Positions 10,778-63,035 of a DNA stretch of 64,000 nt are shown one piece after another. Source of the DNA: Pseudomonadota bacterium. GTDB taxonomy: Bacteria; Desulfobacterota; Syntrophia; Syntrophales; UBA8958. The stretch spans positions 30,561-94,560 of the forward strand of contig JASGUC010000004.1 in NCBI GenBank assembly GCA_030057915.1. The letters run 5' to 3'. Both the position numbers and the translations under genes were made by a program. The first letter of the stretch is position 1, and each line of letters opens with the position of its first letter. A model generated the notes under the pieces. The model saw only the letters and a program-made list of their open reading frames with translations. It had not been told where the DNA came from and did no database searches.

Positions 10778-10820
10778 TTGGCTTGAGCAAGATTTTAAAC
10801 AAAAAAGATTTTCAAAAGCA

Positions 10821-12233: not shown

Positions 12234-12268
12234 TTCTACTTAAAAGCATCATGCATTCAGGTGAAAAA

Positions 12269-13285: not shown

Positions 13286-13286
13286 G

Positions 13287-14009: not shown

Positions 14010-14028
14010 AGAATATTTCGGAAAGGAC

Positions 14029-14994
14029 ATGATCCTCATGGCAGGGGAAAAGACATGCCAGGTGGCGATTATCGGGGCCGGATATATGGCTGGCGAACAT
14101 ATCCGGGCTTTTCAAGACATCCCCGGGGTGCGTATCACAGGCATTCAAAGCCGTACAAAGGCGCGGGCTGAAGGAATCGCCGCACAATTCGGAATAGCGC
14201 ATGTTTGTGACTCCATTGAAGAATTGTATCATGTAACTCAGGCCGATCTCGTAATCGTCACGGTGCCGGAGTTGGAGATGAACGGGGTAAGCCGCGCCTG
14301 TTTTAAGTATCCCTGGGTGGTGCTGCTGGAAAAGCCAGCCGGATATAACCTCGCCGATGCCCAAGAGATAGAAGTGGCGGCGAGGTCAGCGCATAGTAGG
14401 GTTTTCGTGGCGCTGAATCGTCGTCATTACTCGAGCACCCAGGCCGTCATAGAAGACCTGCAGGGGTTGTCGGGCCCACGCTTCATTCGCGTGGAAGATC
14501 AGGAGGATCAGATACGCGCCCTGGAGGCCGGACAACCGAAACAGGTGGTGGATAACTGGATGTATGCAAATTCTATCCATGTGATCGATTATTTTTTGCT
14601 TATGGGCCGGGGAGAGGTATCCGCCGTGGAGCCCATTGTGCCCTGGCACCCTGACCTGCCGCACTTTGTAGCGGCTAAAATAACATTCGATTCCGGTGAT
14701 GTCGGTCTGTACGAATCCGTATGGAACAGGCCGGGTCCGTGGGCCGTAAGTGTGAGTACGCCGGAAAAACGCTGGGAGATGAGGCCGCTGGAGCAGGCAG
14801 CTTATCAGGATGCGGGGCAACGGAAAATGGTATGTATCGAACCCCACCCTTGGGATCTTCAATTTAAGGCCGGCCTGCGCTTACAGGCAGAGAAAGCCGT
14901 CGCGGCAACTCGGGGCGAGGTTGCAGATTTGCCGACCCTTGAGGAATCTCTAAAAGTGATGCGCCTGGTAAGTGATATTTACAAGCCCCAGTGA
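14029..14994 (+). CDS. Gfo/Idh/MocA-family oxidoreductase
   Basis: CQVAIIGAGYMAGEHIRAF Rossmann motif and LLEKPAGYNLADA (EKP motif). Confidence 0.8.
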   Translation: MILMAGEKTCQVAIIGAGYMAGEHIRAFQDIPGVRITGIQSRTKARAEGIAAQFGIAHVCDSIEELYHVTQADLVIVTVPELEMNGVSRACFKYPWVVLLEKPAGYNLADAQEIEVAARSAHSRVFVALNRRHYSSTQAVIEDLQGLSGPRFIRVEDQEDQIRALEAGQPKQVVDNWMYANSIHVIDYFLLMGRGEVSAVEPIVPWHPDLPHFVAAKITFDSGDVGLYESVWNRPGPWAVSVSTPEKRWEMRPLEQAAYQDAGQRKMVCIEPHPWDLQFKAGLRLQAEKAVAATRGEVADLPTLEESLKVMRLVSDIYKPQ

Positions 14995-16439: not shown

Positions 16440-16454
16440 TTTGTCTATGGGAAT

Positions 16455-17720: not shown

Positions 17721-17759
17721 CTGCTAAATGGCTATGAATGCGGATAATTTTTCCACGTC

Positions 17760-18419
17760 GTGAAAAGATTGTTCGACATATGTGTTTCCTTGGGCGGCCT
17801 CTTGCTTTTAAGTCCAATGATTGCCGCTGTTGCCTCGATTATTAGAAAAGACGGCGGCCCCGTTTTCTACCGGGGGGAACGAACTGGCCTGTATGGGAAG
17901 CCCTTTAGGATTTACAAGTTCCGCACGATGGTCGTCGATGCGGAGAAGGTCGGCGGCGCTTCCACGGCGGATGACGACGCCCGCATTACCTCCGTCGGCA
18001 AATTTCTTCGTAAATACAAGCTTGACGAGACGCCCCAACTCATCAACGTCCTCAAGGGGGAGATGAGCATCGTCGGGCCCAGACCGGAGGTGAAGCGTTA
18101 TACGGACATGTTTTCCGATGAGGAAAAGGCCATCTTGACGGTCCGCCCCGGGATCACCGATTGGGCCTCCATCTGGAACGCCGACGAGGGGGCCGTTCTG
18201 GCGGGCGCGGCGGATCCCGATCTTGCCTACCTGGAGCTTATCCGGCCAATGAAATTGAAATTGCAGTTGAAGTATGTTAGGGAGCGTTCTTTCTGGGTGG
18301 ATCTGAAGATCATCTTCCTGACCCTGCTGGCGGTCGTTCAACCGGAAAGCCAGGCGGTGCGGGAGATGAGAAGGGGGCATGAGATGACGATTGCCACGGG
18401 CGTTGAGGGGAAGAGGTGA
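17760..18419 (+). CDS. Small monotopic phosphoglycosyl transferase (PglC/WbaP C-terminal-type bacterial sugar transferase)
   Basis: KRLFDICVSLGGLLLLSPMIAAVASIIRKDGGPVFYRGERTGLYGKPFRIYKFRTM and DETPQLINVLKGEMSIVGPRP hallmarks. GTG start. Confidence 0.9.
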   Translation: MKRLFDICVSLGGLLLLSPMIAAVASIIRKDGGPVFYRGERTGLYGKPFRIYKFRTMVVDAEKVGGASTADDDARITSVGKFLRKYKLDETPQLINVLKGEMSIVGPRPEVKRYTDMFSDEEKAILTVRPGITDWASIWNADEGAVLAGAADPDLAYLELIRPMKLKLQLKYVRERSFWVDLKIIFLTLLAVVQPESQAVREMRRGHEMTIATGVEGKR

Positions 18420-47544: not shown

Positions 47545-48378
47545 ATGCAACAGGTTTCGATAATGGAAGAGAGAAACGCAACGCCCGATGGGGCCGCATA
47601 TTTGGAGGATGCCCGAAGTATGGCGTCCGCGGCGGGCGGGTATCTTCGCCTGCACCTGCGGGACCGGCGCCATGTCCGGTTCAAGGGAGCGATAGATATC
47701 GTCACGGAGGCGGACCTGGCGGCGGAGAAACTGATCGTGGACAAGATCCGGTCGCTCTATCCGGGACACGATATCCTGGCCGAGGAGTCTCCCGCCACCA
47801 GCCTCGGCTCGCCATTCCGCTGGATCGTCGATCCTTTGGACGGGACGACCAACTACTCCCACGGCTATCCGGTTTTCTGCGTATCCATCGCCTTGGAGAT
47901 ACAAGGGGTTTGCGTGCTGGGGGTGGTATATGACCCCATGCGGGAGGAGATGTTCACCGCGGTGAAGGGTCAGGGCGCGTTTTTGAATGGCGAGCCGATT
48001 ACCGTATCCCGGACGGAGGAGATATCCCGGAGTCTGCTTGCCACGGGTTTCCCCTATGACATCCGTTCCAGCTCCGAAAACAACATGAATTATTTCTGGG
48101 TGATGGCCATGAATGCCCAGGCGATACGCCGGGCCGGATCGGCGGCCCTGGATCTGGCATATGTGGCCGCGGGCCGCTTCGACGGTTTCTGGGAATTGAA
48201 GTTGAAACCCTGGGATATGGCCGCCGGCTGTCTTCTGGTCAGCGAGGCGGGGGGGCGGGTAACGGATCTGCGCGGGGGAGACTTTGTCCTTGACGCCCCC
48301 CATGTAATGGCGTCCAACGGCGCCATCCATGCCCGGATGCTGGGACTCCTCGCCGCCGCCCCCCGGGCCGTCGGCTAA
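47545..48378 (+). CDS. suhB: Inositol monophosphatase family protein (SuhB-like)
   Basis: Motifs ILAEES, WIVDPLDGTTNY and KPWDMAAGCLLVSEAGG. The start could instead be ATG 47563. Confidence 0.88.
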   Translation: MQQVSIMEERNATPDGAAYLEDARSMASAAGGYLRLHLRDRRHVRFKGAIDIVTEADLAAEKLIVDKIRSLYPGHDILAEESPATSLGSPFRWIVDPLDGTTNYSHGYPVFCVSIALEIQGVCVLGVVYDPMREEMFTAVKGQGAFLNGEPITVSRTEEISRSLLATGFPYDIRSSSENNMNYFWVMAMNAQAIRRAGSAALDLAYVAAGRFDGFWELKLKPWDMAAGCLLVSEAGGRVTDLRGGDFVLDAPHVMASNGAIHARMLGLLAAAPRAVG

Positions 48379-48494
48379 CTGGCGAATCCTCCTGGCGATG
48401 TCACCTTATCTGCCTGTTTTTATGGATGTTCCGCTCGATGCGACGGGAGTCGCGGGCCGGGTGTGATTTAGGTCACGGCAACTTGAAATAATTC

Positions 48495-48523
48495 TTGACT
48501 TTCAGAATTAACTGGCATTTAAT
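48495..48523 (+). promoter_or_regulatory. Putative sigma70-type promoter ahead of the cohesin/dockerin-like cluster
   Basis: TTGACT, 17-nt spacer, TTTAAT, in a locally AT-rich patch about 60 nt upstream of ATG 48585. Sequence match only. Confidence 0.35.
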
Positions 48524-48584
48524 CGGGCCGTAAGGAAGAAGAAGAGGATCACCAAGCCGCTGCTCGGAGGCCGCTGCGCGGGGT

Positions 48585-48995
48585 ATGAAAAGAACAAGCG
48601 CCCTGTTGAACCTGATGCTGGTCATGGCGATCGTTGTCGCCGCCTTCCCGGCGGGCAACCGAGCGTTGGACCTGAATCGCGACAATCGCATCGACCTGGG
48701 CGAGACCATTATTCAGATTCGTCATTTTGCCCGTTCCGCCGAACATCCCGATAGATTCGCCCCGTCCTTGGAAAACGCCCTGACGGCGCTGCAGGTCGCC
48801 GCCGGCCTGAAGCAGGCGATCAGCTCCAAGGACTCGCCCCAGGCCTCGCCTCAACAGCATTTCCTTCTTGTCTATTTGGCGCCGACTGGACAGTTGACGG
48901 CGCCGATGGATGCCCATCCCAACATCGACAAGACAGATCGAAAACCGACATCGGTTGCCTCCCGGCCCGAAACACCCCCCCCGCGTTTCGCGTAA
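48585..48995 (+). CDS. Small secreted protein with one dockerin/EF-hand-like Ca-binding segment
   Basis: Signal peptide MKRTSALLNLMLVMAIVVAAFPAGNRA. The loop DLNRDNRIDLGE has acidic or amide residues at positions 1, 3, 5, 9 and 12 and is followed by the helix TIIQIRHFA. A second helix reads ALTALQVAAGLK. Confidence 0.65.
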   Translation: MKRTSALLNLMLVMAIVVAAFPAGNRALDLNRDNRIDLGETIIQIRHFARSAEHPDRFAPSLENALTALQVAAGLKQAISSKDSPQASPQQHFLLVYLAPTGQLTAPMDAHPNIDKTDRKPTSVASRPETPPPRFA

Positions 48996-49092
48996 CAACG
49001 TGCCATAAAGGGCGGCGGAATGCCGCCGTCCGGTCTTATAGTTTGTTTTCCCGAACAATCAATATTTTATACCCCACGAAGGGAGGCGAATC

Positions 49093-51462
49093 ATGAAATA
49101 TAAGAAGTCGTTTTTGTCCTGTTTTGCGATCGTGGCGGCGTTGCTTTTCGGACTGCTCGCGCCGGCATGGTCCGCCACCGCCCCCGTCCTGGATCTGGTT
49201 CCCAACGGCAGCGCCGTCTTCAGCGCCACGAAGCAGGTGGAATTCAGCCGGGGCAGCGATTTTTATCTAAACGTTACCGTGGACAATATCAACAATATCG
49301 CCGGGGCGGCCTTCACGATCAATTACGATGCCACCTACCTGGAGCCACCGGTCATCGACACGGCAGGTCTTTCCGAAGGCATCAGCTCCCCGCTCTTCAC
49401 GACCTTCACCGATACCCGGGGGACGTCCAACGTTACGGAAACGGTCCGCCGGGGCGGCCAGGGAGTGGGGAAGATCCTCCTGAGCGGCGCCATGATCGAT
49501 TCCTCCACGGGAGGCGCGAAGGTCAACCCCGACAGCAATGGCGTCCTCTTCAAGCTGAAGTTCAAGGTAAAGGAGAATGCCCCCTACAATACGCCCTTTG
49601 CCGTCAGCCTCACCGCGACGACGCTTAACAACACCGCCGCGGGCTATGCCGCGGGCGGCGAGGCGATCCCCCTTCTTGTCGGCGCCGTGGACAAGAGGGA
49701 CCCCAACTGGGGAAACCTGACGGCGGCCTTCCCGGTCCTGCTGGCCTCCCTGGTCCAGCCCCTGTCCCTGTCCTGTAGTGTCGTCGAGGCGCGGACAAGG
49801 ATTCAAGGAGAGATTTCCTATACGGGCAAGCAGGGGGGTACTCTGAAGGTCGGGGCCTACCGGGACAGCGCCCTCACCCAGTTCGTCGAGGGAAGCGGCT
49901 ATTCCGTCGCCTGGCCGGGAACGGGGACCCAGACCTATACGCTCTTCCTGCCCCGGGCCGGCAATTATTACGTGGGCGCGTATATCGACAGCCCGATGCC
50001 CAACGGCAGCGCCGCGAACAACCAGAAGGACGCCTGGGAGGCCCAGGGTCAGTTTGCCTCGGCCATAACCGTGGCCGCCGACGAGACGGTTACGGGCAAG
50101 GACTTCACCCTGGTCGATCCGGATACGGGCGGCGTGGGGCTGCCGGACTGGTGGCGCCTGAAATACGGCGTAGGCGCCGACAACGCCGCGAAACTCGCTT
50201 CGCTCAACGACCGCAACGCGGACTACGACAAAGACGGCTATTCCAACCTCGTGGAATACCAGGGCTACAAGGCGGATGGTACGGGGATGAATCCCACGAC
50301 GGTCCAGGAGGCCCCCGGCGGCTCGGGTTACAACGCCGCCACGGACAACCGGAACTACAATATCGCCGGGACCGTTTATTATACCGGGACCCAGACGGGA
50401 ACTCTCTACGTCAAGGGGTTTGCCGCTTCCGACGTCACCTTCCAGACCCCGCTGTGCGCCGCAACTCCGGCAGTCTGGTCCGGGACGAGCAAGGCCTACA
50501 CCATGTCATGCCGGAACGGTTCCTATGTTGTCCGGGCCTTCATCAACCCCAACGGCCAGGATGTCGTGGACAGCAATATGCCCCAGGGTGTCTCCACGCC
50601 GGTGACCCTGGCGGGAACGGCCCTCAACAACGTAAATCTGACCTTGATCGGTAATGAGCCGACTCAAAAGGTTTACACCAATCCCGCCAATCCTTCTGGA
50701 CGCTCCGGTGGCAGCTTCAGTATGGACGTGATGTACGATACCTCCGACCACAATCAGACTCTGACCGGTCTGGGTCTCCGCATCCACTACGATCCGACGA
50801 AGGTGACTTTCGACAGCTTCAGCAATGTCCTGTCTTCCGGCAACCCGACGCAGGATTCCACCCCGATGGATGATACGCTCGACTACGACAATGATCCAGC
50901 GACGACAAAATACCTGACTATTGCCTGGTCTGATCTCAACGGCGCCTGGCCGGGAACGACCCTCCCCCTGAGGCTTTACACCGTCAAATTCAATGTGCCC
51001 ACCGGTCTGGCGGACAATGTGACGAGCGCCATAAGGTTCAGCGTCAGCTCCAAGGCCGCCGGTTATCTCTTCTCCTATACACCGGCCCTGTTCAAGGTTC
51101 AGTCCTTCAACTATGACGTTGACGCCAATGCCGTGGCCGACGCGCTGACGGATGGTCTGCTGGTCATCCGTTACCTCTTTGGGTTCACTGGGGATACCCT
51201 TATCGGCAAGGCGGTAGCCACTGATGCGACGCGGAAGACGGCAACGGACATCGAGACCTATCTCCAAGGCGGTTTGACCTTGCTGGATGTGGACGGTAAT
51301 GGTGCGGCCGACGCGCTGACGGATGGTCTGCTGGTCATCCGTTACCTCTTTGGGTTCACTGGGGATACCCTTATCAGCAAGGCGGTGGCCACGGATGCGA
51401 CGCGGAAGACGGCAACGGAAATTGAAGCTTACATGCTTCAGTTCATGCCTCCCCAACAATAA
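49093..51462 (+). CDS. Secreted modular protein: cohesin-like 1, Ig-like, TSP3-like linker, Ig-like, cohesin-like 2, two dockerin-like segments
   Basis: Signal peptide ending APAWSA. FYLNVTVDNINNIAGAAFTINYDATYLE (cohesin-like). DPDTGGVGLPDWWRLKYG...NADYDKDGYSNLVEYQ. LTGLGLRIHYDPTKV...DYDNDPATTKYLTIAWSDLNGAWPG. Two copies of D(A/G)N(A/G)xADALTDGLLVIRYLFGFTGDTLI. Confidence 0.8.
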   Translation: MKYKKSFLSCFAIVAALLFGLLAPAWSATAPVLDLVPNGSAVFSATKQVEFSRGSDFYLNVTVDNINNIAGAAFTINYDATYLEPPVIDTAGLSEGISSPLFTTFTDTRGTSNVTETVRRGGQGVGKILLSGAMIDSSTGGAKVNPDSNGVLFKLKFKVKENAPYNTPFAVSLTATTLNNTAAGYAAGGEAIPLLVGAVDKRDPNWGNLTAAFPVLLASLVQPLSLSCSVVEARTRIQGEISYTGKQGGTLKVGAYRDSALTQFVEGSGYSVAWPGTGTQTYTLFLPRAGNYYVGAYIDSPMPNGSAANNQKDAWEAQGQFASAITVAADETVTGKDFTLVDPDTGGVGLPDWWRLKYGVGADNAAKLASLNDRNADYDKDGYSNLVEYQGYKADGTGMNPTTVQEAPGGSGYNAATDNRNYNIAGTVYYTGTQTGTLYVKGFAASDVTFQTPLCAATPAVWSGTSKAYTMSCRNGSYVVRAFINPNGQDVVDSNMPQGVSTPVTLAGTALNNVNLTLIGNEPTQKVYTNPANPSGRSGGSFSMDVMYDTSDHNQTLTGLGLRIHYDPTKVTFDSFSNVLSSGNPTQDSTPMDDTLDYDNDPATTKYLTIAWSDLNGAWPGTTLPLRLYTVKFNVPTGLADNVTSAIRFSVSSKAAGYLFSYTPALFKVQSFNYDVDANAVADALTDGLLVIRYLFGFTGDTLIGKAVATDATRKTATDIETYLQGGLTLLDVDGNGAADALTDGLLVIRYLFGFTGDTLISKAVATDATRKTATEIEAYMLQFMPPQQ
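51136..51419 (+). repeat. Near-perfect 113-nt direct repeat, copies 171 nt (57 codons) apart, encoding the two dockerin-like segments
   Basis: GCCGACGCGCTGACGGATGGTCTGCTGGTCATCCGTTACCTCTTTGGGTTCACTGGGGATACCCTTATC... at 51136-51248 and 51307-51419, differing at only a few positions. Confidence 0.9.
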
Positions 51463-51551
51463 ATTAAAATTATCAGGCATTGACAATCCGGCGTCTTTTG
51501 CGGACGCGAAAGGCGCCGGAAACCAAAACACCGAAATGAAGGAGTCTTGAG

Positions 51552-52082
51552 ATGAAGATAAAAGTGATCAAATCGCTTGGTTTTATCGCCGTTGCCCTTG
51601 CAGTTGTATTCCTCGCCTCCGGCGTTCAGGCCGGCACTCAGTCAGTTGTCATGTCGCCGGGTAATTTGTCGCTTGGGCCGGGGCAGACTGGGGAAATTAC
51701 CTTGAGTTACAATGTAACCTCCGGTCCGTCAAAGACAACAGGCTTGGGAATTAGGATTTGCTATGATTCCAGAGTAATTGAAAAAATTAGCATCGAAGAT
51801 CCATATGGCGAAGGACTTGTCGCTGTTGATGCCGCGCCGGTGGCGGACAGCAAGAATATTGATGAGGTCTTGATTACGGATCAGCATATCGGTGCCGCTT
51901 GGGTGGGCGTGGCCGGAGACTGGCCGGCGATGATGAAACTGCCCGTGCAATTGGGGAAGATCGTTGTCAAGGTCCGGGCAGACGCGGAAGCAGGGAAGAC
52001 GACGGTAGTGAAGATTACGGCCAGTGGTTTGCCGGTGGGTTATACCCTCGATGCGGGCATGACGACAATAGTGGTCAAATAA
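51552..52082 (+). CDS. Secreted single-module cohesin-like protein
   Basis: Signal peptide ending [22 protein letters not shown]...[14 protein letters not shown]...[12 protein letters not shown] matches the signatures of modules in the two neighbouring genes. GAAGGAG RBS. Confidence 0.7.
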
Positions 52083-52125
52083 TTGGATATGCATATTTGC
52101 TGGTGGAAACAATAGGGGGATTAAA

Positions 52126-55100
52126 ATGAGAGCGTTCAAGAGAAGATGGCTGCAGTTTGTCGTAATCGCCTTGGTCTTGCTGCTGGGTGGTGTGGCCTAC
52201 ACACTATTTGCGGCGGCGAACCAGACGATCAATCTTGTTCCCACAACAACCACGCCCAATGTTGGAGACAATTTCTCCGTGTCCGTCCTTTACAACGTCT
52301 CGGATGGGGAAAAGGAATTGACGGGTATTGGCTTCCGCGTCCATTTTGACTCTAAGAAGGTCAATTACGTCAATTATTCAAATCATTTTACCAAGAGTCA
52401 GATGGGCGTTCAGGTTCAGGACGATACCGCGGATTACGACAACGACCCGACAACGGATAAATTTATTTTGGTAGCCTGGGCGGATACCAACGGACAGTGG
52501 CCGGGTACTGATCAGACCCTGCCGCTCGAATTGATAAAATTCAATTATTCGGTGAAGACGGGTCAGGTGGCCAGCAGCTCGAATATCAACGTCAGCAAAA
52601 GGAATACCTCCGCGGGCTATGGCTTCGTCGGGACCAACACGAAAATCGATATCAAGGTTCCCCCCGGCACCATCACCGGGACCATCTCCGGCGCATACAA
52701 GAGCGGGCCCATTTATGTCGGCGCCTACTCCGACGCCCAGTTGACGACGCTGGTCAAGGGGACGACTATCAACGCCCTGGGGGCTTACACGATCGCGGAC
52801 ATCACGCCCGGAGACTATTATGTTGCCGCCTTCAACAGCGTGGACAGCTCCGGCGTCCGTAAACCCACCGATCCGGCGGGGGCCTTCGCCGGGAATCCCG
52901 TCACCGTGGAATCGGGAAAAACAGCGGACAAAAAGGATGTGGTCCTCAAGCAGGCCACCTTGACGATCTCGAAGGCGGGCAATCCCGCCACGGTAAATCT
53001 CGGCGGAGAAATCACCTACACCATCACCTATAAGAACACCGGCACGGCGGCGGCGAACAACGTTGTCATTACCGACACCATCCCGGCGAATACGAGCTTC
53101 AAATCGGCTTCCGACGGCGTATCCCCTGCGGGCGGCGTAGTTACCTGGAATATCGGCACTGTTGATGCGGGTGTAGAGGGCCAGCGGCAGTTGGTCGTCA
53201 CGGTGGCAAACAAGCTGCCGGACCAGACCAATATCGCCAATTCCATTTACAGCATCACGAGCGATCAAACAGGCAAGGTGGAAGGCGCCCAGCCCGTCAG
53301 TACGAAGGTGAACGCCCCGGTCCTCACCGTGGATAAGGTGGCGCCTGTCAGCGTCAAGGCGGGCGGCGAGATTACTTATACAATCAACTACAACAACACG
53401 GGTAACATGGCGGCGACGGGGGTGGTGATTGTCGATACCATTCCGGAAGACACCACCTATGTGGCCAATTCCGCAAGCAACGGCGGCGTCTATGACCCCC
53501 AGGCCAAGACGGTTACCTGGAATATCGCCAGCCTGGCGGCCAATACCAGCGACAGTGTTTCCTTTAAAGTTACGGTGAAGACACCGCTGGCCGACGGGAC
53601 GAAAATCACGAATGCCGCCTACAGCATCCAGAGCACCCAGACGGCGCAAGTGAAGGGCCAGTCCAAAGAGTCAACGGTGGAGAGTAAGCCGGAATTTCAA
53701 CTGACCAAGACGGCGACGCCGAATCCGGTCATCATCGGTAAGGAGCTGACCTATGAACTGACGGTGACCAATGTAGGCACCGCCAATGCCACGGGGGTGG
53801 TGATCCGCGACACCGTGCCCGCCAACACAACCTACAAGGCCGGTTCCGCCTCCGACGGCGGCACCGAGAGCGGCGGGGTGGTGACGTGGAACCTCACCGA
53901 CGGCCTCGCCATGGGGGCCACTAAAAAAGTCACCTTTAAGGTCACCGTGGGTGACGCCCTTTCGGACAAAGCGAAGATCAAGAACGAGACCTATAGCGTG
54001 ACCTGCACCCAGGGGGCCTCGAAAGCCGGCCAGGCCGTGGAGGTGGAGGTCATCCGCCCCGTCCTCGGGATCGCCAAGACGGCTGACAAGACATCGGTGA
54101 ATATTGGAGACACCATTACCTATACGATCACCTACACGAACACGGGGAGCGCGGATGCCCTGAATGCGGTGATAAAGGAGAAGATTCCCGACAACGCGAC
54201 TTATGAGTCTTCCACGCCTTCGGGGACTTACGATAATGGGACGCGGACTGTGACCTGGACGTTAGCCAAGGTAGACAAGACGTCGGGTCAGGGGACGGTA
54301 TCCGTGACAGTGCGGGTGGCGGCTCCCGGGCTGGTCAATGGCGCGCTCATCGTGAACGACACTTACAGCATTCATTCGGAAGAGATCAAGACCCCGGTTC
54401 AGGGGGCAAAGGTGGAGACCCCGGTCAACGCCCCCGTCCTGGCCCTTACCAAGGTGGCGGCGGTCGTCATCGGCCAGACCCTCACGCCGGTGACGGAAGT
54501 CCCCAGCGGCGATGATCTGACCTACATCCTCACCTATAAGAACACTGGTGGCATGGACGCTACCGGCGTCGTCATTACGGATAAGATTCCGGCCAAGACG
54601 ACCTTCGTATCGGCGGACAACGGCGGCGTCCTCAATGCCGGGACGGTGGAGTGGAAGAACCTCACCATCAAGGCCGGAGAAACCAAGACCGTTTCCTTCA
54701 AGGCCACGGTCGGAGGACTCAATGGGGATGTCATCGTCAACGACACCTTTGCTATCGCCAGCAACCAGACGGCTTCCGTGAAGGGCGGGCCGGCGACGAG
54801 CACCAAGGTGGTGGCCAAACCGATCCTCAATATCAATAAAACGGCGGACAAGGCAGCGGTAATTGCCGGTCAGAACCTTGTCTATACAATAACTTACAGC
54901 AACACAGGCAACGCCGATACGGCGAACGTCGTGATCAGCGACACCCTGCCGGCGAATGTAACCTTTGTCTCCGCATCGGACGACGGACAGACAAAGGACG
55001 GCGTGGTCACCTGGGCGATCGGCGCCCTGGCCAAGAAGACGGAGAAGACCGTTACCCTCACCGTGAAGGTGAACGCCGACGTCGCCGACGGCGGCAGTGT

Positions 55101-58100
55101 CGTCAACTCCACCTACACCATAAAGGGTGACGGTGCCGACCAGGCGGCGGGAAAGTCCCTGACCACAGCGGTCATCAAACCGGTCCTCTCGATCTACAAG
55201 ACCGGGACGGCGACGGTGAATGTAGGCGGCAACATCGTCTATACCATCACTTATGAAAACAAGGGCGGCGCCGATGCCACCAATGCGGTGATCAAGGACA
55301 CGCTGCCTACGGGTACGAACTTTGTTTCCGCCACTGGTGGCGGGACGGAGAGCGGCGGGGTTGTCACCTGGAATATCGGCACGGTAGCCAAGAACTCCGG
55401 ACCCCAGACGGTAAGCTTCACCGTGACGGTCCCCAAGGCCGACAAACTGGTCAACGGCGCGGTCATCACGAATGAGACCTACAGCATCGCCTGTGCCGAA
55501 CTGAAGGACCCCGTGGTCGGGACGACGTTGGCGCGCACCACCGTAAACGCCCCGATCCTGACCATCGCCAAGAAGGCGCCGGTATCCGTGGGCGCCGGGG
55601 CCAATCTGACCTATGAAATCAGCTACAGCAACACGGGTGGCATGGATTCCACCGGGGTGGTCATTACCGACACGGTTCCCACCGGGACGACCTTCGTGTC
55701 CGCCACTGGTGGCGGGACGGAGAGCGGCGGGGTTGTCACCTGGACTATCGGCAATCTGGCGAAAGGCGCCACCGCCACCGTGACCTTTACGGTCAAGGCG
55801 CCGGCCTCCGACGGCACGGCGATCAAAAACAGCGGCTATGGCATAGTCTGCAACGAACTCACCGCCAAGGCCACGGGGCCCGATGTCATCACCCTGACCA
55901 CCGGCAAACCGATCCTGACGATCAGCAAGACGACGGACAAGACGGAAGTCAAGCCGGGGGCGGAACTTACCTATACGATTACCTATAACAATACGGGGAA
56001 CGTGGCGGCGACCGCTGTGACAGTGAGTGACGCCATCCCGTTTAATACTGAGTTCAAGTCGGCGACGGGCACCTATACCTATGATGCCGACAAGAAGGTC
56101 GTCATCTGGACGATTGGTAACGTGGCCGCCGGCGGCAGCGCCACCGTTACCTTTACCGTTACGGTCAAGACGACTCTGAACAATGGCGACAAGATCAACA
56201 ACACGACCTACAGCGTCAGCGCCACCAATGCCGATACGGCCTATGGCGCGACGGTGACCGCCACGGTGATCAAGCCCGTCCTGTCCGTCAGCAAGGCGGC
56301 GGATGCGGCCACGGTGGATATCGGCGGTACCATCACCTACACCCTTACCTATGCGAATGCCGGCGGGGCCGATGCCACGGCGACCCTGCTCAAGGATAAG
56401 CTCCCGGTGGGCACGACCTTTGTCTCTGCTACCGGTGGCGGTACGGAGAGCGGCGGGGAGGTGAGCTGGAATCTCGGGACGGTGGCCAAGAATTCGGGGA
56501 ATCAGACCGTTACCCTCACCATCCGGACGCTGACCACGAACCTGGCCGACGGGACGGTCATCACCAACGATACCTACAGCATCTCCTCGGCCGAGGTTAC
56601 TACCGCGGTTCCCGGAACCGACAAGGCGACGACGACGGTGAAATCTCCCCAACTGACCATCGGCAAGACGGGGAACGTCGCCATCGAGGCCGGGAAGGAT
56701 CTGACCTATACCATAACCTACAAGAATGTCGGCAAGAAGGCGGCGACGAATGTGGTGATCACCGATACGGTGCCCACCGGCACGACCTTCAAGTCGGCGA
56801 CAGACGGCGGCTCCAACAGCAGCGGCGTCGTCACCTGGAATATCGGCAGTCTGGCGGCGGGGGCCGGCGGTACGGTTTCCTTCACCGTGACCGTGCCCAC
56901 AGGCACCCCCAACGGCACGGAGATAAAGAACGACAAGTATCAGATCGTCTGCGCTGAGATCACGACCGCGGTTCCTGGCGCCGCCATGGTCAGCCTGGTC
57001 CAGAGCCAGCCGCGGCTGCTTCTCTCCAAGACGGCGGCGCCCTCGCCGGTGGAGGCGGGCAAGACGTTGACCTACACCCTGACTTATGCCAACAAGGGAA
57101 ATGTGAAGGCCACGGGGGTGAAGATCACCGACACCGTGCCGGCGAATACGACCTTCGTCTCCGCCACGGGTGGCGGAACCCAAAGCGGCGGCGTCGTGAC
57201 GTGGGACATCGGCGATCTCGACGTCAATGCCGAAGGCACGGTTACCTTCACCGTTACCGTCAACGCCGCGGTGGCCGATGGAAGCGTAATCACCAACAGC
57301 CGTTACGGTATGACCTCCAAAGAGGTTATCGGCGATCCGACTACGGCGGTGGCCACCACGGTTTACAAGCAAGTGGAAATCAAGAATCCCTCGCCCACCG
57401 TCGCCGCGGGTGGCAGCGTCACCCTCGCCGTGAGCGGTGAAACCGGCGCCGGTTATGCCTGGGAGGTCCAGAAACCGGGCGGCGCCTTCGCCAAATGGGA
57501 GTACGACCGCTCCAACCCGGCCGCGGGCGGCTTCGATAGCGCCACCAATACCTTCCACGCCCCCTCCACGGGAAACTATGCGGGCATCTATAAGGCGAAG
57601 GCCACGGGCGGCGTCCTCAACACCTCGGCGACGACCGAGATCGTCGTCCCCGTGAAGGTTGACGCCGATGCCGGCGGGAAGATTTCGTTCCTCGCTGGTG
57701 ATCCGCTGTCCACCTTTGTGGCCACCGGCGCGGCCAATTACAGCAGCAACTGGGCCATCGTGGCCGCCAGCGGCAAAACGGCGGGCTACGATCCCAGCAC
57801 GACGCCGGAGAACGGCGGCGCCATAAATGCGAGCAGTTATCGCACCACTTACAACAAGGCGGATTTCACCCCTGCGGCGGCGGTTGCCGGCGCGACGACC
57901 CTGCGCTTCAAGGTGACGCCAGTCATCGCCGGCTACACGGCGGAGGAGAATGAGAAGTGCGCCGGTTACAGTCCCAACATCATCGTCTATCCCTCCACCA
58001 AGATTACCGGGAGGATGGTGGACAACGCCGGGACGGGCATCGTTGGTGGGACGGTCCTCCTGATGAAGGGCAAGGGCGATCCCGACAAGGTCACCACAGC

Positions 58101-59661
58101 AGCCGGCGGGGCTTTCGCCTTCACCGTTGCCAACGCGCCAGGCGTCTATCTCCTCAATTGCCAGGCCGATGGTTACATGCCCCAGAAGGTGGAGAATGTG
58201 AGACCCAACAATCCGGTGACCGTCAAAATGGCCCCCAAGAACTACTCCATCGCCGGGACGGTGATCAACAACGGCGGCGAGGTAGTGGCGGGCGCCAAGG
58301 TGGTGGCCTACCGGACGGTTGGAGGGGCGAGGGTATTCACGGATACCTTCGAGACCGACGCCGCCGGGAAGTTCACCGTCGCTACCCAGCAGACCGGCAC
58401 CTACACCCTGGTGGCGACCAAGGACGGTTACCTCCGGACGGAGATGTCGAAGTACATCCGCAGCGACAACTCGGAAGGGACGATCGATTTGCCCGCGCTG
58501 ACCGAACCTGATGTGAACAATATCGACCTGAAGAACAATTACCTGATTATGCGTCAGAAGACGTCGCTCTCCATCATCTACGATCCGGCCACATCGATTC
58601 TGACCTTTATGGCCTCCCCGACCTTTACCGGCACGGGCGAGATCATCCAGCTCAGCGTGGACAAGGGAACCCTGGGGGCCCTGTCCTACAGCGGCGGCCA
58701 AGTGTCCTGCACCTATACGCCCCCGGAGAACACGACGACGGAGACCATCTGGGCCCAGGCCCGGACCGGTGGCGCATCGGCCAGCGAACTGATCGCCTAC
58801 ATCTTCCGTCCCGAGTACAAGACCGAGAAGGCGCCGGTGGACCCGGTAGCGGGCGGCAACGTGGGCAGCAGCGACGTGGTGGCCCAGATCGTCCTCCGGC
58901 CGGGCTCGCTGACGAACGATAAGGCGGCGGGCGTAGTGACCGGAAAGGGTTCCAAGGCTAGTGAAGCGCCGGGTGGCGTCACCCTCCAGTCCGATCCGGT
59001 GGAAATCAACATCATCAACAGCACCGGGGATGTCCTGGGCAACGTCATCAACAAGGACAAGCCCATCGAGATCACCATCACCTACGATCCGCTGACCTTC
59101 AACCCGAATAGCTTCACCATCTACTATCGGGATCGGTTGGCCGACGGCTCCTGGGGTCCCTGGATCGATGGCGTCAAGGATGGTTCGGTGAAGATTTTGA
59201 GCATCGACCCGGTCAACAACACCATCACCTTCAGCTCCACCCACCTGTCCGGGTTCTCCGCCGGTTCTCCCGGGGCCGGCGGCGGCGGCGGTGGAGGCGG
59301 AATTTTAGGCGGCGGTGGCGGGTGCTTCATCGCCACGGCGGCCTATGGATCGATCATGGAACCTCATGTGGAGATTTTGCGGAACTTCAGGGATGTCTAT
59401 CTCATGAACAACGATCTGGGTCGGAGATTCGTGAACCTGTACTACCGGTACTCGCCCCCGATCGCCGCTGTCATCGCCAAGAGCGAACTCCTCAGGCTGG
59501 GGGCGCGGATTGCCCTGGCGCCGGTGGTGGGCTTCAGTTACCTCATGCTCCACACGACCGTCGTCGGGAAGATAGCCCTCCTGCTGGCGTTGATCGGGTT
59601 GTTGGCGACCGGGACCCTGTTCCTGGCCCGCCGGATGAGAAGGATGGGCTATCGGGCATAA
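52126..59661 (+). CDS. Giant (2,511 aa) surface protein: N-terminal signal or anchor, cohesin-like module, Ig-like domain, 12 tandem DUF11-like repeats, Ig-like and CarboxypepD_reg-like domains, poly-Gly, [10 protein letters not shown] domain, C-terminal TM helices
   Basis: [14 protein letters not shown]...[25 protein letters not shown]. Repeats of the type [47 protein letters not shown]...[27 protein letters not shown] and [22 protein letters not shown]-terminal [24 protein letters not shown]...[12 protein letters not shown]. Confidence 0.9.
52960..57375 (+). repeat. 12 tandem coding repeats of ~368 nt (~123 aa, DUF11/'conserved repeat domain'-like)
   Basis: Each unit begins L(T/S/N)(I/V)xK(T/A) and contains (E/T/N)(I/L)TYT(I/L)TYxNTG...(V/A)V(I/V)xDT(I/L/V)P...T(F/Y)(V/K)SA...GVVTW(N/T)IG. 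Counted by eye from the translation. Confidence 0.85.
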
Positions 59662-59707
59662 GCCCGGCCGGCTTGCGGATGCCCTGAAGGGCAGACATAA
59701 ACCATGG

Positions 59708-59750
59708 AAGAAGGGGAGGCGCCGCGCCTCCCCTTCTTACGTTTTTCTTT
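59708..59750. terminator. Bidirectional rho-independent terminator between the giant gene and ORF 59756-60388
   Basis: Perfect stem AAGAAGGGGAGGCG / CGCCTCCCCTTCTT with a 3-nt loop, followed by ACGTTTTTCTTT on the + strand. Confidence 0.6.
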
Positions 59751-59755
59751 CAGGT

Positions 59756-60388
59756 TTACTTTTGCGGTTTGAGGAAGATGTCGGTGGTGATTTGGTTGCC
59801 TTCCGTGCGCTGATCGCTGGTCCGCATGACATATTTGCCGATCTGGAGAAGGCCCGTTTCCGGCAGGAAGGCGATTTTGTCCGTCAATAGGAGATATGGC
59901 TCGGAAAGAACCCGGACGTCGCCTGCCAAGAGGATGTCTCTCTCTTTTATCCTGATGGTTCCCTCCTGGGCGAAGATCTGCGTGGGGGTTTCCTGATTGA
60001 CATGAATCTTGATGGCAATGGGTCTGGCGATGATCACGGCGGCCTTCTCCACGGGCATCGCACGGAAAACCTCCTCGGAGATAGTGTTTTTCAGGGAAAT
60101 TCCCCCCGGTCCTTCCGTGATTCGGGCCCCGTACAGATCCAGATAGGCGTTGTCCAGACGCAGATCGGAACTGCCGAAAAGACCGCGCAGGCCCGAGGCG
60201 GCATGGTGGCGATCCGCCCGGAGGGAGAGGATCTTTTCGCCTTCCCCGCCGGCCTCGAAGCGGAATGGCGCCGCGCCTTTTTTCGCGGTATAGGCGTTCA
60301 TAAAGAGCAGCGCGGCGGCAACTACGGCAATCGATCCGACGACAAGATAGATAATGAGCTTTTTGGAACGGTCCTTATCGGCCAACAT
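59756..60388 (-). CDS. Hypothetical membrane-anchored periplasmic protein (possibly LptC/OstA-like or a secretion accessory protein)
   Basis: N-terminal TM LIIYLVVGSIAVVAAALLF followed by a beta-rich domain (IRIKERDILLAGDVRVLSEPYLLLTDKIAFLPETG). No diagnostic motif. Confidence 0.5.
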   Translation of the reverse strand: MLADKDRSKKLIIYLVVGSIAVVAAALLFMNAYTAKKGAAPFRFEAGGEGEKILSLRADRHHAASGLRGLFGSSDLRLDNAYLDLYGARITEGPGGISLKNTISEEVFRAMPVEKAAVIIARPIAIKIHVNQETPTQIFAQEGTIRIKERDILLAGDVRVLSEPYLLLTDKIAFLPETGLLQIGKYVMRTSDQRTEGNQITTDIFLKPQK

Positions 60389-60618
60389 GATGTCCTCCTT
60401 TGACAGTATTCAAGGTAAGTCGCTGATAAATCGCGGGGAGTATACGTATTGCGTCAATAGGTGTCAAAGCATTTGTTTGCCCCCTGTCGTCAGAAAAAGG
60501 CGCGGCGCGGGGAAATTGGTTCTCCCGGCGGGCGCTTGATTTCCTGAGGCCGCAAACAATGGGCAACCCGATGTCTGCGGCTTATTTCGAGCGGCGTCGA
60601 TTTTCCCGAGGGGCGGCG

Positions 60619-60722
60619 CACGGCAAATTTCTTCTATCTCTGAGTGGCTGAAAACAGGACGTGCCTCAGTTTTAGTAGATCATTCAAGATCAACTACTTA
60701 CATTGAGAACAAATTTGCCCGA
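60619..60722 (-). mobile_element. 104-bp MITE (family 2), copy 2, inverted relative to copy 1
   Basis: The reverse complement aligns with 45937-46040 at about 12 mismatches in 104 (hand alignment), with a perfectly conserved core CTAAAACTGAGGCACGTCCTGTTTTCAGCCACT. Flanked by an imperfect 11-bp direct repeat GAGGGGCGGCG / GAGGCGCGGCG. Confidence 0.75.
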
Positions 60723-60774
60723 GGCGCGGCGACGAGGCGTTGTCTTTAGAGAGGATACATGTTAGAGTGCCCCC

Positions 60775-62010
60775 ATGCCTGTGTACGAATATGTCGCCCT
60801 TGATAGAAAGGGCAATAAAATAAAGGGCATGATCGATGCCGGAAGCCTTGCGTCCGCCCGGGTGAAGCTCCGGGAAACGGAGGTTTATCCCGTCGAAATC
60901 AGGGAGCCGGAGGCCGGACGGGGCCGGGACACCACGGCGGCGTCGGAGGCGGCGGGGGCCGGGTTTTTCAAAAAGGTGGGTCTGCGGGAGGTCGCGGCGA
61001 CCACCAGGCAGCTTTCGACCCTTCTGGGCGCCGGCCTGCCGCTGGTCCCCTCCCTGTCAACCCTGGTGGCCCAGACGACGAATCGGAGTATGAAGGCGAC
61101 CCTGGCGCAGATCCGGGAAAACGTCAACGAGGGAAACAGCCTCACAAGCAGCATGTCCCATTTTCCCCAGATCTTCCCTCCCCTCTATGTGAACATGGTC
61201 CGGGCCGGGGAGGCCTCGGGGACCATTAATCTCGTTTTGGAGCGCCTGGCCGACTTCATGGAGAATCAGCAGGCCCTGCGGGCGAAGATCCGCTCCGCCC
61301 TGGCGTATCCGATCCTGATGTTCATTATTGGAAACCTGGTGCTGTTCTTCCTCATCACCTTCGTCGTTCCCAACATCACGAAGATATTCTCGGAGATGCA
61401 TCAGAATCTCCCCGCCATAACCATCTTCCTTATTGCGGTCAGTGGCTTTTTCAAGAATTTCTGGTGGGGGATCGCCATCGCCGTGACGGCGGCATTCCTT
61501 TTCCTGCGCCATGGGATGCGTAACACCGAAAGCGGGCGATACTGGTGGGATCGCCTTAAGCTCAAGGCGCCGCTTTTCGGCGCCCTGAATCAGAAGCTGG
61601 CCATGGCGCGTTTCAGCAGGACCCTGGGGACCCTGCTCCAGAGCGGCGTGCCCCTCCTGACGGCGATGAACATCGTGAGAAACGTCGTTGACAACCGCAT
61701 CGTCGCCGACGAGATCCTCCATGCCAGCCGGGAGATAGAAGAAGGGCAGAATCTGTCCGCCCCTCTCGCCCGCGGAGGCCTTTTCCCCCCCCTGGCCGTG
61801 GAGATGATCTCGGTGGGCGAGCAGAGCGGCAACCTGGAGACGATGCTCTATCGCATTGCCGATGCCTACGAAAAGGAGGTGGAGGCGAGCGTCATCATGC
61901 TCACCTCCCTGCTGGAGCCGGTCATGATCCTCGTAATGGGCCTGATCGTGGGATTTGTCGTCGTTTCCGTATTGCTGCCGATCTTCGAGATGAATCAACT
62001 GGTCAGATAA
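60775..62010 (+). CDS. gspF: Type II secretion system inner-membrane platform protein F
   Basis: MPVYEYVALDRKGNKIKGMIDA N-terminus and two GspF-type repeats (VRAGEASGTINLVLERLADF and VGEQSGNLETMLYRIADAY). Confidence 0.88.
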   Translation: MPVYEYVALDRKGNKIKGMIDAGSLASARVKLRETEVYPVEIREPEAGRGRDTTAASEAAGAGFFKKVGLREVAATTRQLSTLLGAGLPLVPSLSTLVAQTTNRSMKATLAQIRENVNEGNSLTSSMSHFPQIFPPLYVNMVRAGEASGTINLVLERLADFMENQQALRAKIRSALAYPILMFIIGNLVLFFLITFVVPNITKIFSEMHQNLPAITIFLIAVSGFFKNFWWGIAIAVTAAFLFLRHGMRNTESGRYWWDRLKLKAPLFGALNQKLAMARFSRTLGTLLQSGVPLLTAMNIVRNVVDNRIVADEILHASREIEEGQNLSAPLARGGLFPPLAVEMISVGEQSGNLETMLYRIADAYEKEVEASVIMLTSLLEPVMILVMGLIVGFVVVSVLLPIFEMNQLVR

Positions 62011-62074
62011 TCGTAAATTGTTGATTAAAAGTTACGGCGGTGTTAGATAGCGTCAACAATTCGGAGGGAAGGGC

Positions 62075-62521
62075 ATGAAAAAAAGAATCGGACGGAAAAA
62101 CCGGGGCTTCACGCTCATTGAACTTATGGTCGTTATCGTGATTCTCGGCATTCTGGCCGGCCTGATCATCCCCCGGATCATGGGGCGGCCGGATGAGGCG
62201 CGGCGGGCCAAGGCGCGGGTCCAGATCGAGAGTCTGGGCACGGCCCTCAAGCTCTACAAGCTCGACAACGGCAATTACCCGACCACGGAACAGGGACTGC
62301 GGGCCCTGGTCGAGGCGCCGGCGGCCGGGGCGCTGGCGAGGAACTGGCGACAGGGCGGCTATCTGGAAGGAAGCCGGGTGCCCAAGGATCCCTGGGATCG
62401 GGATTTTGTCTATATCTCTCCGGGCACGCACGGCGATTTCGACCTGAGTTCCCTTGGCGCGGACGGAGAACCGGGTGGCGAAGGCAAGGACAAGGACATC
62501 AACAACTGGGAAACGGACTGA
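62075..62521 (+). CDS. gspG: Type II secretion major pseudopilin
   Basis: Prepilin leader and cleavage motif KNRGFTLIELMVVIVILGILAGL, plus the GspG signature PKDPWDRDFVYISPG...DLSSLGADG. Confidence 0.9.
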   Translation: MKKRIGRKNRGFTLIELMVVIVILGILAGLIIPRIMGRPDEARRAKARVQIESLGTALKLYKLDNGNYPTTEQGLRALVEAPAAGALARNWRQGGYLEGSRVPKDPWDRDFVYISPGTHGDFDLSSLGADGEPGGEGKDKDINNWETD

Positions 62522-63035
62522 TGCCGAGGCCGGCTACACGCTCATCGAACTGATCGTCGTCATCGTCCTCATCGGTATCCTGCTCTCTTTTGCCGTTCCC
62601 CGTCTCCGGGACGATTTGCTCAACGACAGTCTCCACGCGACGGCGCGGCAACTGGTGGGGACGGCCAAGGAACTGCGCAACGACGCGGTAAGAGAACAGG
62701 TCGATTTTATTCTTCATTTCGATATGGGCGCCAATGTTTTCTGGTCCTCCGCCGCCGACATGACGCCGGAGAAGCTCGATGAGAGGAGGCGGGGCGCTTC
62801 CCCTTTCCCGCCGGGCGTCCGGGTCGCCGATATCGAATTCGGCCGGGAGCGGGTGACATCGGACGGAGAGGCGCGGATAGTCTTTTCCCGTCATGGCTAT
62901 GTAAACCCGGCGGTCATCCATATCGCCAAGGGGGGGCGGGTGGTGACCGTGGCCCTGGCCCCCTTCCTCCGCCGCATCGGGATTCATGACCGGCAGGTGG
63001 GTTTCGACGATCTGTTCCCGGCGTCGGCCAGATAG
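62454..63035 (+). CDS. Minor pseudopilin, GspH-like; start codon uncertain
   Basis: GYTLIELIVVIVLIGILLSFAVP followed by a GspH-like beta domain. The only in-frame starts are TTG 62454 and GTG 62475. The ATG at 62521 is in another frame. Confidence 0.7.
   Translation: MARTENRVAKARTRTSTTGKRTDAEAGYTLIELIVVIVLIGILLSFAVPRLRDDLLNDSLHATARQLVGTAKELRNDAVREQVDFILHFDMGANVFWSSAADMTPEKLDERRRGASPFPPGVRVADIEFGRERVTSDGEARIVFSRHGYVNPAVIHIAKGGRVVTVALAPFLRRIGIHDRQVGFDDLFPASAR

Follow-up and report, generated by a model that had tools for sequence, protein, structure and literature searches.

A conserved four-gene operon in Syntrophales and Desulfobacterales: a candidate enzyme-free envelope fibril with cohesin- and dockerin-like modules

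Background

Cohesin modules are known from the cellulosomal scaffoldins of Bacillota, such as ScaA/B/C/E/G of Ruminococcus flavefaciens, ScaB of Acetivibrio cellulolyticus and ScaA of Pseudobacteroides cellulosolvens, and non-cellulosomal cohesin/dockerin proteins have been noted in archaea and bacteria (Peer et al. 2009, as cited in PMC9012536 and PMC10553843). Clusters of cohesin/dockerin genes are also present in anaerobic methanotrophic (ANME) archaea and syntrophic sulfate-reducing bacteria (SRB), and these have been proposed to encode adhesins for syntrophic aggregates (PMC9012536, PMC10553843). Here we describe a four-gene cluster, p1 to p4, in 64,000 nucleotides of contig JASGUC010000004.1 (assembly GCA_030057915.1; Desulfobacterota, Syntrophales), a stretch referred to below as the window. 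On the basis of sequence comparisons and predicted structures we consider it fairly probable that p1-p4 constitute a conserved Syntrophales/Desulfobacterales operon for a non-enzymatic envelope fibril joined by cohesin-dockerin-type contacts.

The likeness to cellulosomal scaffoldins lies in the cohesin fold and, for one module (cohesin A of p2), in the Pfam Cohesin family; cellulosomal cohesins are the closest solved structures both to cohesin A and to the model of p3. The parts are also comparable, i.e. an adaptor with cohesins and a dockerin-type module (p2), an anchored protein presenting a cohesin (p4) and a stand-alone cohesin (p3) like ScaG/CohG (4wkz), and for a stand-alone cohesin a shuttle function has been proposed (Voronov-Goldman 2015, as cited in PMC6507058). 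In contrast to the cellulosomal proteins, p1-p4 lack enzymes and carbohydrate-binding modules, and the host is a diderm member of Desulfobacterota. Moreover, the three cohesins other than cohesin A are members of a divergent subfamily (B type) that Pfam Cohesin misses in these proteins, the Ca-loop unit of the operon has 50 residues with a 13-residue loop and occurs in tandem pairs, usually right after a cohesin and often internally, and the anchor is a CFI-box-CTERM domain, not SLH or a sortase signal. With the ANME/SRB clusters p1-p4 share cohesin/dockerin modules in non-cellulolytic anaerobes, including Desulfobacterota, and clustered genes without enzymes, whereas neither the p1-p4 order, nor a cassette of B cohesin and unit pair, nor a CLIPPER/CFI-box anchor is described for those clusters, judging by their domain-annotation descriptions.

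Two further systems resemble p4. Fibrillar adhesins with CLIPPER stalks (bioRxiv 10.1101/2025.04.25.650565; PDB 9IFR) have the same tandem stalk, an isopeptide triad at matching spacing and the same layout of signal peptide, tip and sorting domain; p4 differs in that its tip is a cohesin and not a known adhesive domain, in having CFI-box-CTERM in place of an OmpA-like or LPXTG anchor, and in being embedded in an operon with proteins carrying partner modules. MYXO-CTERM-type signals are cleaved by CPBP/Rce1-like myxosortases and the proteins displayed via the type II secretion system (T2SS) (PMC11980579; bioRxiv 10.1101/2023.06.07.544157). As in the MYXO-, JDVT-, Synerg- and CGP-CTERM signals, p4 has a Gly-rich spacer, an invariant Cys motif, a transmembrane helix and an Arg-rich tail, and T2SS genes are present downstream in the window, while the p4 domain is longer (69 residues, two hydrophobic segments) and the T2SS adjacency is not conserved.

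In the literature searched, the four-gene order, the B-cohesin/unit-pair cassette and its breadth, the co-replaced module sets and the CLIPPER stalk with a CFI-box-CTERM anchor appear to be undescribed; one p2 relative is already named "cohesin domain-containing protein" at NCBI. If the contacts are real, the operon would represent a compact enzyme-free cohesin-dockerin system in a Gram-negative syntrophic lineage, and a molecular candidate for how obligately partnered anaerobes attach or aggregate, a question that the ANME/SRB genomic surveys raised and left unresolved. If they are not, it would still be a well-conserved fibrillar adhesin operon of ordinary interest.

Results and discussion

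Conservation of the operon and joint replacement of modules

An earlier note, made from the window sequence alone, had read four consecutive + strand genes for cohesin-like and dockerin-like proteins at 48585-59661 and had suggested looking for their co-occurrence in related genomes. The four open reading frames (ORFs) were confirmed at these coordinates (Table 1), and homologues were surveyed among the GTDB species representatives together with a hidden Markov model (HMM) map of 59 loci. Members of the p2 family are present in metagenome-assembled genomes (MAGs) of uncultured Syntrophus (86% identity), Syntrophales, Syntrophaceae, Desulfobacterales/Desulfobacteraceae and Desulfatibacillaceae, and 22 p2 homologues were found in a search of 5.8 billion proteins. 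The four genes do co-occur: the full order, p1, p2 (cohesin A, B cohesin and two Ca-loop units), p3 (B cohesin) and p4 (N-terminal B cohesin), is present at 13 distinct loci, spread over MAGs of Syntrophus, Syntrophales, Syntrophaceae, Desulfobacterales and Desulfatibacillaceae, and among these loci the flanking genes vary. In the 59-locus map, downstream genes with B cohesins were detected solely at loci whose p2 has the units.

The strongest pointer to contacts between the modules comes from one lineage (loci L004-L006), where p2 is 54% identical to the window p2 across 95% of its length. Conservation extends here to cohesin A, p1, the spacers and, in p4, to the part of the stalk right after the tip module. 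The B modules of p2, p3 and p4 are all of another type (P0004; 37-47% mutual identity), with a marginal relationship to type B (hhalign E=1.5e-4), and the unit pair of p2 is replaced by one canonical Dockerin_1 domain (P0004; 25.4 bits, passing the cut-off of 22.9; P0015 has the same p2 C-terminus). Such a joint replacement, of the Ca module and of B modules in three separate proteins, suggests that these modules recognise one another, i.e. that the B cohesins and the Ca module of p2 interact. The window-type and L004-type module sets would then be naturally orthogonal and are potential parts for protein assembly.

In the mechanism that we propose, p4 would be sorted by its C-terminal signal and would display its B cohesin at the end of a mechanically strong stalk, away from the anchor, and the unit pair of p2 would dock on B-type cohesins. 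Such docking would attach p2 to the tip of the stalk if the target is p4, and would lengthen a chain if it is another p2; with p3 as the target, p3 would serve as a soluble shuttle or would end the chain, cf. the stand-alone cellulosomal cohesins. p1 would dock on cohesin A. The assembly would be located at the cell surface and would serve adhesion, matrix building or partner-cell contact, which are the likeliest roles since no enzymes were seen, and not enzyme organisation. The earlier proposal, an anchored cohesin with an adaptor and with caps or cargo, thus gains indirect backing from the joint replacement in one lineage and is modified in one part, p1 being better read as a partner of cohesin A than as a cap (see below).

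Some relatives have additional cluster genes, and these encode non-enzymatic Ig, CLIPPER or CarboxypepD_reg proteins. The loci of the closest relatives (L012 and L003; p2 identity 86% and 80%) carry a gene between p3 and p4 that is absent in the window; the complete copy in L012 (13300-18126) encodes three B cohesins, five CLIPPER domains and a unit pair, and that in L003 (4164-5708) ends at a contig edge. In a Syntrophales-related lineage, a giant CarboxypepD_reg-repeat protein is encoded directly upstream of p1 (L010, 4900-8571; L011, 311-7936) and ends in a canonical Dockerin_1 domain (29 bits), possibly representing non-enzymatic cargo or a second fibre subunit.

Table 1. Coordinates of p1-p4, their modules and the associated signals in the window
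Feature	Position	Strand	Description and basis
p1	48585-48995	+	136 aa; N-terminal hydrophobic segment, degenerate dockerin-like core, C-terminal PExPPPR
p1 dockerin-like core	48669-48812	+	12-residue Ca loop (D29, N31, D33, D37, E40) and helix, then loopless helix SLENALTALQVAAGLK
p2	49093-51462	+	789 aa; secreted adaptor, predicted signal peptide ...AWS/A
p2 cohesin A, canonical (aa ~30-215)	49180-49737	+	Pfam, PDB matches, predicted beta-sandwich
p2 spacer	49762-50610	+	Two Ig-like beta-sandwiches (aa ~224-341, ~413-506) around a helical segment
p2 B-type cohesin (aa 523-670)	50659-51102	+	Homology to p3 and p4 N-terminus; predicted beta-sandwich
p2 tandem pair of 50-residue dockerin/EF-hand-like units (aa 675-724, 732-781)	51115-51435	+	Profiles
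p3	51552-52082	+	176 aa; secreted stand-alone B-type cohesin, predicted signal peptide ...VQA/G
p3 B-type cohesin module (aa 27-176)	within 51552-52082	+	AlphaFold2 model and Foldseek
p4	52126-59661	+	2511 aa; stalk and anchor protein
p4 N-terminal B-type cohesin (aa 30-177)	52213-52656	+	Homology to p2 B module; HMM E=9e-55
p4, 12 CLIPPER (DUF11/TIGR01451) domains (aa ~277-1753)	52954-57384	+	Pfam and TIGR01451
p4, two CarboxypepD_reg-like beta-sandwiches (aa ~1957-2110)	57994-58455	+	Pfam; boundaries approximate
p4 CFI-box-CTERM sorting domain	59323-59658	+	Gly-rich linker, Cys motif, two hydrophobic segments (59497-59550, 59560-59628), Arg-rich tail
Putative sigma-70-type promoter TTGACT-17 nt-TTTAAT	48495-48523	+	Conservation
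CRP/FNR-like dyad TGTGA-N6-TCAC	48462-48477	+	Centre ~61 bp 5' of the inferred transcription start
Intrinsic terminator	59708-59748	+	14-bp stem (59708-59738), 9 G-C pairs, then T run

Cohesin A and its conserved neighbour p1

The canonical cohesin predicted at the beginning of p2 was confirmed by sequence comparison and agrees with the predicted structure. Residues 52-167 pass Pfam Cohesin (PF00963; E=1.7e-11, 44.9 bits vs a cut-off of 24.1), the PDB matches at E=1e-5, 2y3n_A and 1tyj, are both type II cohesins from the scaffoldin of Pseudobacteroides cellulosolvens, and the AlphaFold2 (AF2) model of p2 has a beta-sandwich at this position. In the spacer that follows, the secondary structure is predicted with pLDDT values (predicted local distance difference test) of 75-94. 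Its helical segment LPDWW...ADYDKDGYSNLVEYQ (50140-50262) resembles a thrombospondin type 3 (TSP3) repeat and, judging by the motif, may bind Ca; DGYSNLVEY of the spacer is nearly invariant across the p2 family. A fold search with the whole p2 model returned mostly generic multi-Ig proteins.

The small protein p1 has its Ca-loop-plus-helix segment at 48669-48731, and throughout its family a canonical loop, D-x-N-x-D-x-x-x-D-x-x-D/E, and helix are followed by a second helix without loop, while the PExPPPR motif (48966-48992) is conserved at the C-terminus. Compared with three Pfam-verified dockerins, p1 aligned across the whole dockerin with the second loop deleted (hhalign P=1.7e-3), and the four best matches of the p1 profile in the PDB, apart from signal peptides, were all dockerins at weak E values (0.7-1.6). 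In Pfam p1 matched EF-hand_5 only (E=0.089) and did not pass Dockerin_1, and its orthologues stayed below the Dockerin_1 cut-off (best E=0.12, matched in two of seven). The best PDB match of cohesin A is 2y3n_A and that of the p1 profile is 2y3n_B (E=0.68, not significant), which are the two chains of one cohesin-dockerin complex; this is possibly a coincidence.

Of the related loci that have upstream DNA and a strongly conserved cohesin-A protein, most have a p1 orthologue directly upstream of this protein. The adjacency persists at loci without B cohesins or with other C-terminal domains, e.g. FG-GAP, in the cohesin-A protein. From this gene arrangement, we prefer to read p1 as the conserved partner of cohesin A and not as a cap.

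The B-type cohesins

That the other three modules of p2, p3 and p4 are cohesin-like had also been proposed. They are mutually homologous (BLASTP E 1e-15 to 1e-33), the p4 and p2 modules being 40% identical (E=2e-33), and share motifs located at 50764-50793 and 50881-50955 in p2, 51738-51767 in p3, and 52321-52350 and 52432-52506 in p4. None of the window B modules matched Pfam Cohesin at E<=1. The AF2 model of p3 is all-beta (pLDDT 84.7), and 21 of its 22 top Foldseek matches in the PDB are type I, II or III cohesins, including 4wkz (best match 5lxv_C at E=1.3e-7; cohesin matches range to E 6e-5, with TM-scores up to 0.64). As modelled, the B-type modules thus have the cohesin fold, i.e. a nine-stranded beta-sandwich of the jelly-roll type. 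A sequence bridge is provided by P0037, in which three B modules (residues 37-184, 194-341 and 351-498) do pass Pfam Cohesin (E=7.9e-13, 49.2 bits, three stretches). Because of the fold matches of p3 and this bridge we place the B type in the cohesin superfamily; the proposal holds in homology, motifs and fold, and the Pfam match is lacking for the window modules themselves.

At E<=0.001 the B-cohesin family comprises 1,796 cluster representatives, and one protein can contain as many as seven copies. Members are found in MAGs of Thermoguttaceae, Planctomycetaceae and Cocleimonas, where they are named hypothetical or after an unrelated domain. Together with the Ca-loop pair the B-type cohesins expose a large unannotated module family.

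The stalk and anchor protein p4

The N-terminal cohesin, 12 Ig-like repeats and C-terminal transmembrane helices read earlier in p4 correspond to a B module, 12 CLIPPER domains and a CFI-box-CTERM domain, and DUF11/TIGR01451 and CarboxypepD_reg, which were among the families suggested for HMM searches, were both found. DUF11 (PF01345; E=5e-172) and TIGR01451 each matched in 12 stretches. The isopeptide triad of Lys, Asp (Glu in one repeat) and Asn is kept in all 12 repeats, with 33-34 residues from K to D in most (43 in one with an insertion) and 53-59 from D to N, which compares with 33 and 58 in the CLIPPER structure 9IFR (bioRxiv 10.1101/2025.04.25.650565). The p4 repeats are accordingly predicted to be isopeptide-competent. 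CarboxypepD_reg matched in three stretches (E=3.4e-15, best at aa 2041-2107), and a third copy is probably present after the N-terminal cohesin.

CFI-box-CTERM (NCBIfam NF041770) scored 97 bits vs a cut-off of 40 at aa 2400-2468 of 2511, with hydrophobic segments at aa 2458-2475 and 2479-2501 and the tail RRMRRM. In the p4 orthologues the C-terminal Cys motif is CFIAAT, CFIDTAA or CLIRT, and a transmembrane segment and an RRRR tail follow. One orthologue (L009) reached 17.5 bits against MYXO-CTERM, under the cut-off of 20; the window p4 gave no match to MYXO-CTERM and its resemblance is architectural only. No description of CFI-box-CTERM or of its sorting enzyme was found in the literature searched; p4 links this uncharacterised signal to a concrete class of cargo. 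By its domain order p4 is a fibrillar-adhesin-like protein with a B-type cohesin at the predicted distal, N-terminal tip.

The same C-terminus could instead retain p4 inside the cell envelope. In such a periplasmic or envelope-spanning complex, not exposed at the surface, the C-terminal helices of p4 and the N-terminal segment of p1 would fix these two proteins to the cytoplasmic membrane, and together with p2 and p3 they would act as a tether or scaffold. The transmembrane segments with a cytoplasmic Arg tail fit this, as do the N-terminus of p1, which has no clear signal-peptidase site after its hydrophobic segment, the position of the cluster next to genes for outer-membrane and lipopolysaccharide (LPS) biogenesis, and the fact that no dedicated exporter is conserved next to it. 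However, 12 CLIPPER domains and the other beta-sandwiches would span several tens of nanometres (a rough estimate), which exceeds the periplasm, and stalks of CLIPPER domains stabilised by isopeptide bonds are characteristic of fibrillar adhesins at the cell surface. Cys-containing tripartite signals like MYXO-CTERM are, in addition, cleaved and the proteins displayed at the surface via T2SS (PMC11980579). We therefore regard a periplasmic location as improbable.

The Ca-loop units and the weight of the evidence for docking

The earlier note had counted three dockerin-like segments, one in p1 and two at the C-terminus of p2. The motifs are present, those of p2 at 51115-51183 and 51286-51354, and the two p2 copies are, from their sequence, a tandem pair of 50-residue units and not the halves of one dockerin. 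The unit follows the pattern DxDGNGxxDALTDGLLxxRYLFGF...ATRxTAxxIExYL and aligned with three Pfam-verified dockerins (hhalign P=5.9e-4).

A number of results weigh against the proposed fibril with cohesin-dockerin-type contacts. The C-terminus of p2 scored 16.8 bits against Dockerin_1 (PF00404; E=0.008), below the cut-off of 22.9. Profiles of the unit and of the unit pair matched solely dockerins and calmodulins in the PDB, with weak E values (0.13-3.9), and PDB searches with one unit, the unit pair or the p1 family gave nothing at E<=0.1. In the AF2 model of full-length p2, residues 672-789 have pLDDT values below 50, a low-confidence fold, and the other parts of the model are good. Dockerins have two segments of ~22 residues, each with a 12-residue loop and a helix, within ~60-70 residues; in p2 the loop of each unit has 13 residues and the period is 57 residues, and p1 has one 12-residue loop with helix and a loopless second helix. 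With Dockerin_1 scores under the cut-off, a single loop in p1 and pLDDT values below 50, dockerin membership of the window sequences is not established, and EF-hand/dockerin-like is the accurate label for the p1 and p2 segments. On the cohesin side, the comparison of B-type with A-type profiles was not significant (hhalign E=0.0076, 5% probability). Adding to this, no CPBP or other sorting protease was detected among the ~40 window ORFs scanned, the T2SS adjacency is not conserved, no other dockerin-like ORF or dockerin-bearing cargo is present within the 64-kb window, and the GTDB species-representative scan found the full operon in no cultured organism. Finally, the distribution of the unit, counted among the 147 best B-cohesin proteins, speaks in the same direction: it is present in 63 of them, almost always as a tandem pair, starting at most 25 residues after the B cohesin in 57 and lying at the C-terminus in 25, with CohB-unit-unit-CohB as the common layout. 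Given this cassette layout, with the pair after a B cohesin and often internal, binding in cis or a purely structural role of this Ca module also fits.

These data could be accommodated by a fibrillar adhesin operon without cohesin-dockerin assembly, in which the cohesin-fold tips bind glycans or partner surfaces, the Ca units stabilise or bind the preceding B module in cis, and p1 and p3 are secreted proteins with an accessory or regulatory function. Such a reading takes the fixed cassette, the calmodulin matches, which equal the dockerin matches, and the Dockerin_1 score at face value, and CLIPPER stalks typically bear adhesive tip domains (bioRxiv 10.1101/2025.04.25.650565). It has difficulty with the set-wise exchange in L004, where a bona fide dockerin takes the place of the Ca module, since this is hard to explain without mutual recognition. 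Moreover, the B modules of p3 and of the p4 tip stand without an adjacent unit, and therefore the cassette is not obligatory, and the adjacency of p1 and cohesin A is conserved independently. We consider an adhesin of this type rather unlikely, and still prefer the fibril joined by cohesin-dockerin-type contacts.

Single units seemed at first to occur as free proteins; all eight inspected cases are shortened gene calls whose start lies within the first unit of a larger protein, and the best 120 of the ~1,000 database matches to the unit (P0181-P0300) are all at most 100 aa. The unit pair therefore appears to be systematically mis-called on short metagenomic contigs.

A bolder version of the fibril is possible since p2 has both receptor and ligand. 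The B-type family, with at least 1,800 protein clusters annotated as hypothetical, spans Desulfobacterota, Planctomycetota and Gammaproteobacteria, and the B-type cohesin with its tandem 50-residue Ca-loop pair might represent an unrecognised, widespread cohesin-dockerin type of diderms. The operon could then produce a fibre that polymerises by itself in daisy-chain fashion on a stalk locked by isopeptide bonds, with p3 as shuttle or terminator, by which syntrophs hold partner cells or matrix. We put this forward as a tentative idea that we doubt more than we believe.

With respect to a true cellulosome-like scaffold, whose dockerin-bearing enzymes would be encoded elsewhere in the genome, the operon does have three B cohesins vs one unit pair, cohesin A is without a proven partner, and the window is part of a contig of at least 147 kb. 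Against such a scaffold, and in agreement with what had been noted for the four proteins, no catalytic or carbohydrate-binding domain was found in p1-p4 or in the extra cluster genes of relatives, nor do these proteins, cluster genes or the 64-kb window contain dockerin-bearing glycoside hydrolases or a scaffoldin with a carbohydrate-binding module. The host lineages are syntrophic or sulfate-reducing Desulfobacterota and are not known as polysaccharide degraders, which also counts against it. An enzyme scaffold is thus very unlikely.

Operon structure and putative regulatory signals

The genes are separated by gaps of 97, 89 and 43 nt, and Shine-Dalgarno-like sequences precede p2, p3 and p4. 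The short gaps, one conserved promoter and one terminator mark p1-p4 as a predicted operon, and the promoter before and strong terminator after the cluster had both been anticipated. A consensus scan called no promoter upstream of p1, owing to the T in the second position of the -10 hexamer; the putative promoter in Table 1 was assigned because of its conservation in four relatives, its -35 hexamer and spacing being invariant across the window, L012, L001 and L004. The terminator stem is the sole + strand terminator-like site in 48300-60800.

The dyad upstream of the promoter is the single match to TGTGA-N6-TCAC in the whole window and is invariant among relatives down to 54% protein identity. 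It fits a CRP/FNR-type site in a class-I-like position, from which we infer that a regulator of this kind may bind. In L001-L003 the 16-nt site is doubled into a perfect inverted pair 5 nt apart (L001 9369-9405), and in the window the left copy has diverged to another small palindrome, GCGAC-N5-GTCGC. In L004-L006 a gene for an extracytoplasmic function (ECF) sigma factor lies directly upstream of p1 (L004 2819-4055; L005 3467-4847), with a zf-HC2 anti-sigma gene called beside it in L005.

Long antisense ORFs, including one of 1660 aa on the - strand (54262-59244), are present inside p4; the repeat region is GC-rich and stop-poor, and we therefore treat them as shadow artefacts and not as genes. 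The p4 region in question has an unusually positive AT skew (0.16-0.22).

Surroundings in the window

Downstream of p4 is a T2SS run of gspF, gspG and a pseudopilin gene (60775-63035), with no gspD or gspE upstream of gspF. The partial T2SS operon reported earlier is hence present and its neighbourhood is not conserved: a conserved link was rejected, as L007, L009 and L013 have genes for a PD40/Tricorn protein, Metallophos, an OmpA-like barrel and a subtilase downstream of p4. Likewise, the 210-aa - strand ORF (59756-60388) was rejected as a fifth conserved gene, because ORFs of comparable length and placement in relatives are unrelated and no family matches were obtained. A near-consensus sigma-70 promoter (TTGACA-17-TATACT, 11/12; 60467-60439) is directed at this orphan ORF.

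The region 18400-48400 is a long block of envelope and housekeeping genes. It has genes for two GT9 heptosyltransferases, a lipid A acyltransferase, LpxK, an MsbA-like ABC exporter, LpxD and BamA, and also encodes a LolCDE-like system (MacB/FtsX and ATPase), LysS, RodZ and a SuhB-like inositol monophosphatase. The host is taken to be a diderm with LPS because of BamA, LpxD, LpxK, the lipid A acyltransferase, MsbA, the heptosyltransferases, the LolCDE-like system and the T2SS genes. The BamA-to-SuhB stretch is syntenic in L001 and L004. Positions 1-18000 have a G+C content of 43-52% vs ~56-64% elsewhere in the window, and carry co-directional sugar/polysaccharide genes (DegT aminotransferase, GDP-mannose-dehydratase-type enzyme, C- and other methyltransferases, GFO/IDH oxidoreductase, GT1 glycosyltransferase); by its composition and gene content this part looks like a horizontally acquired O-antigen or exopolysaccharide cluster.

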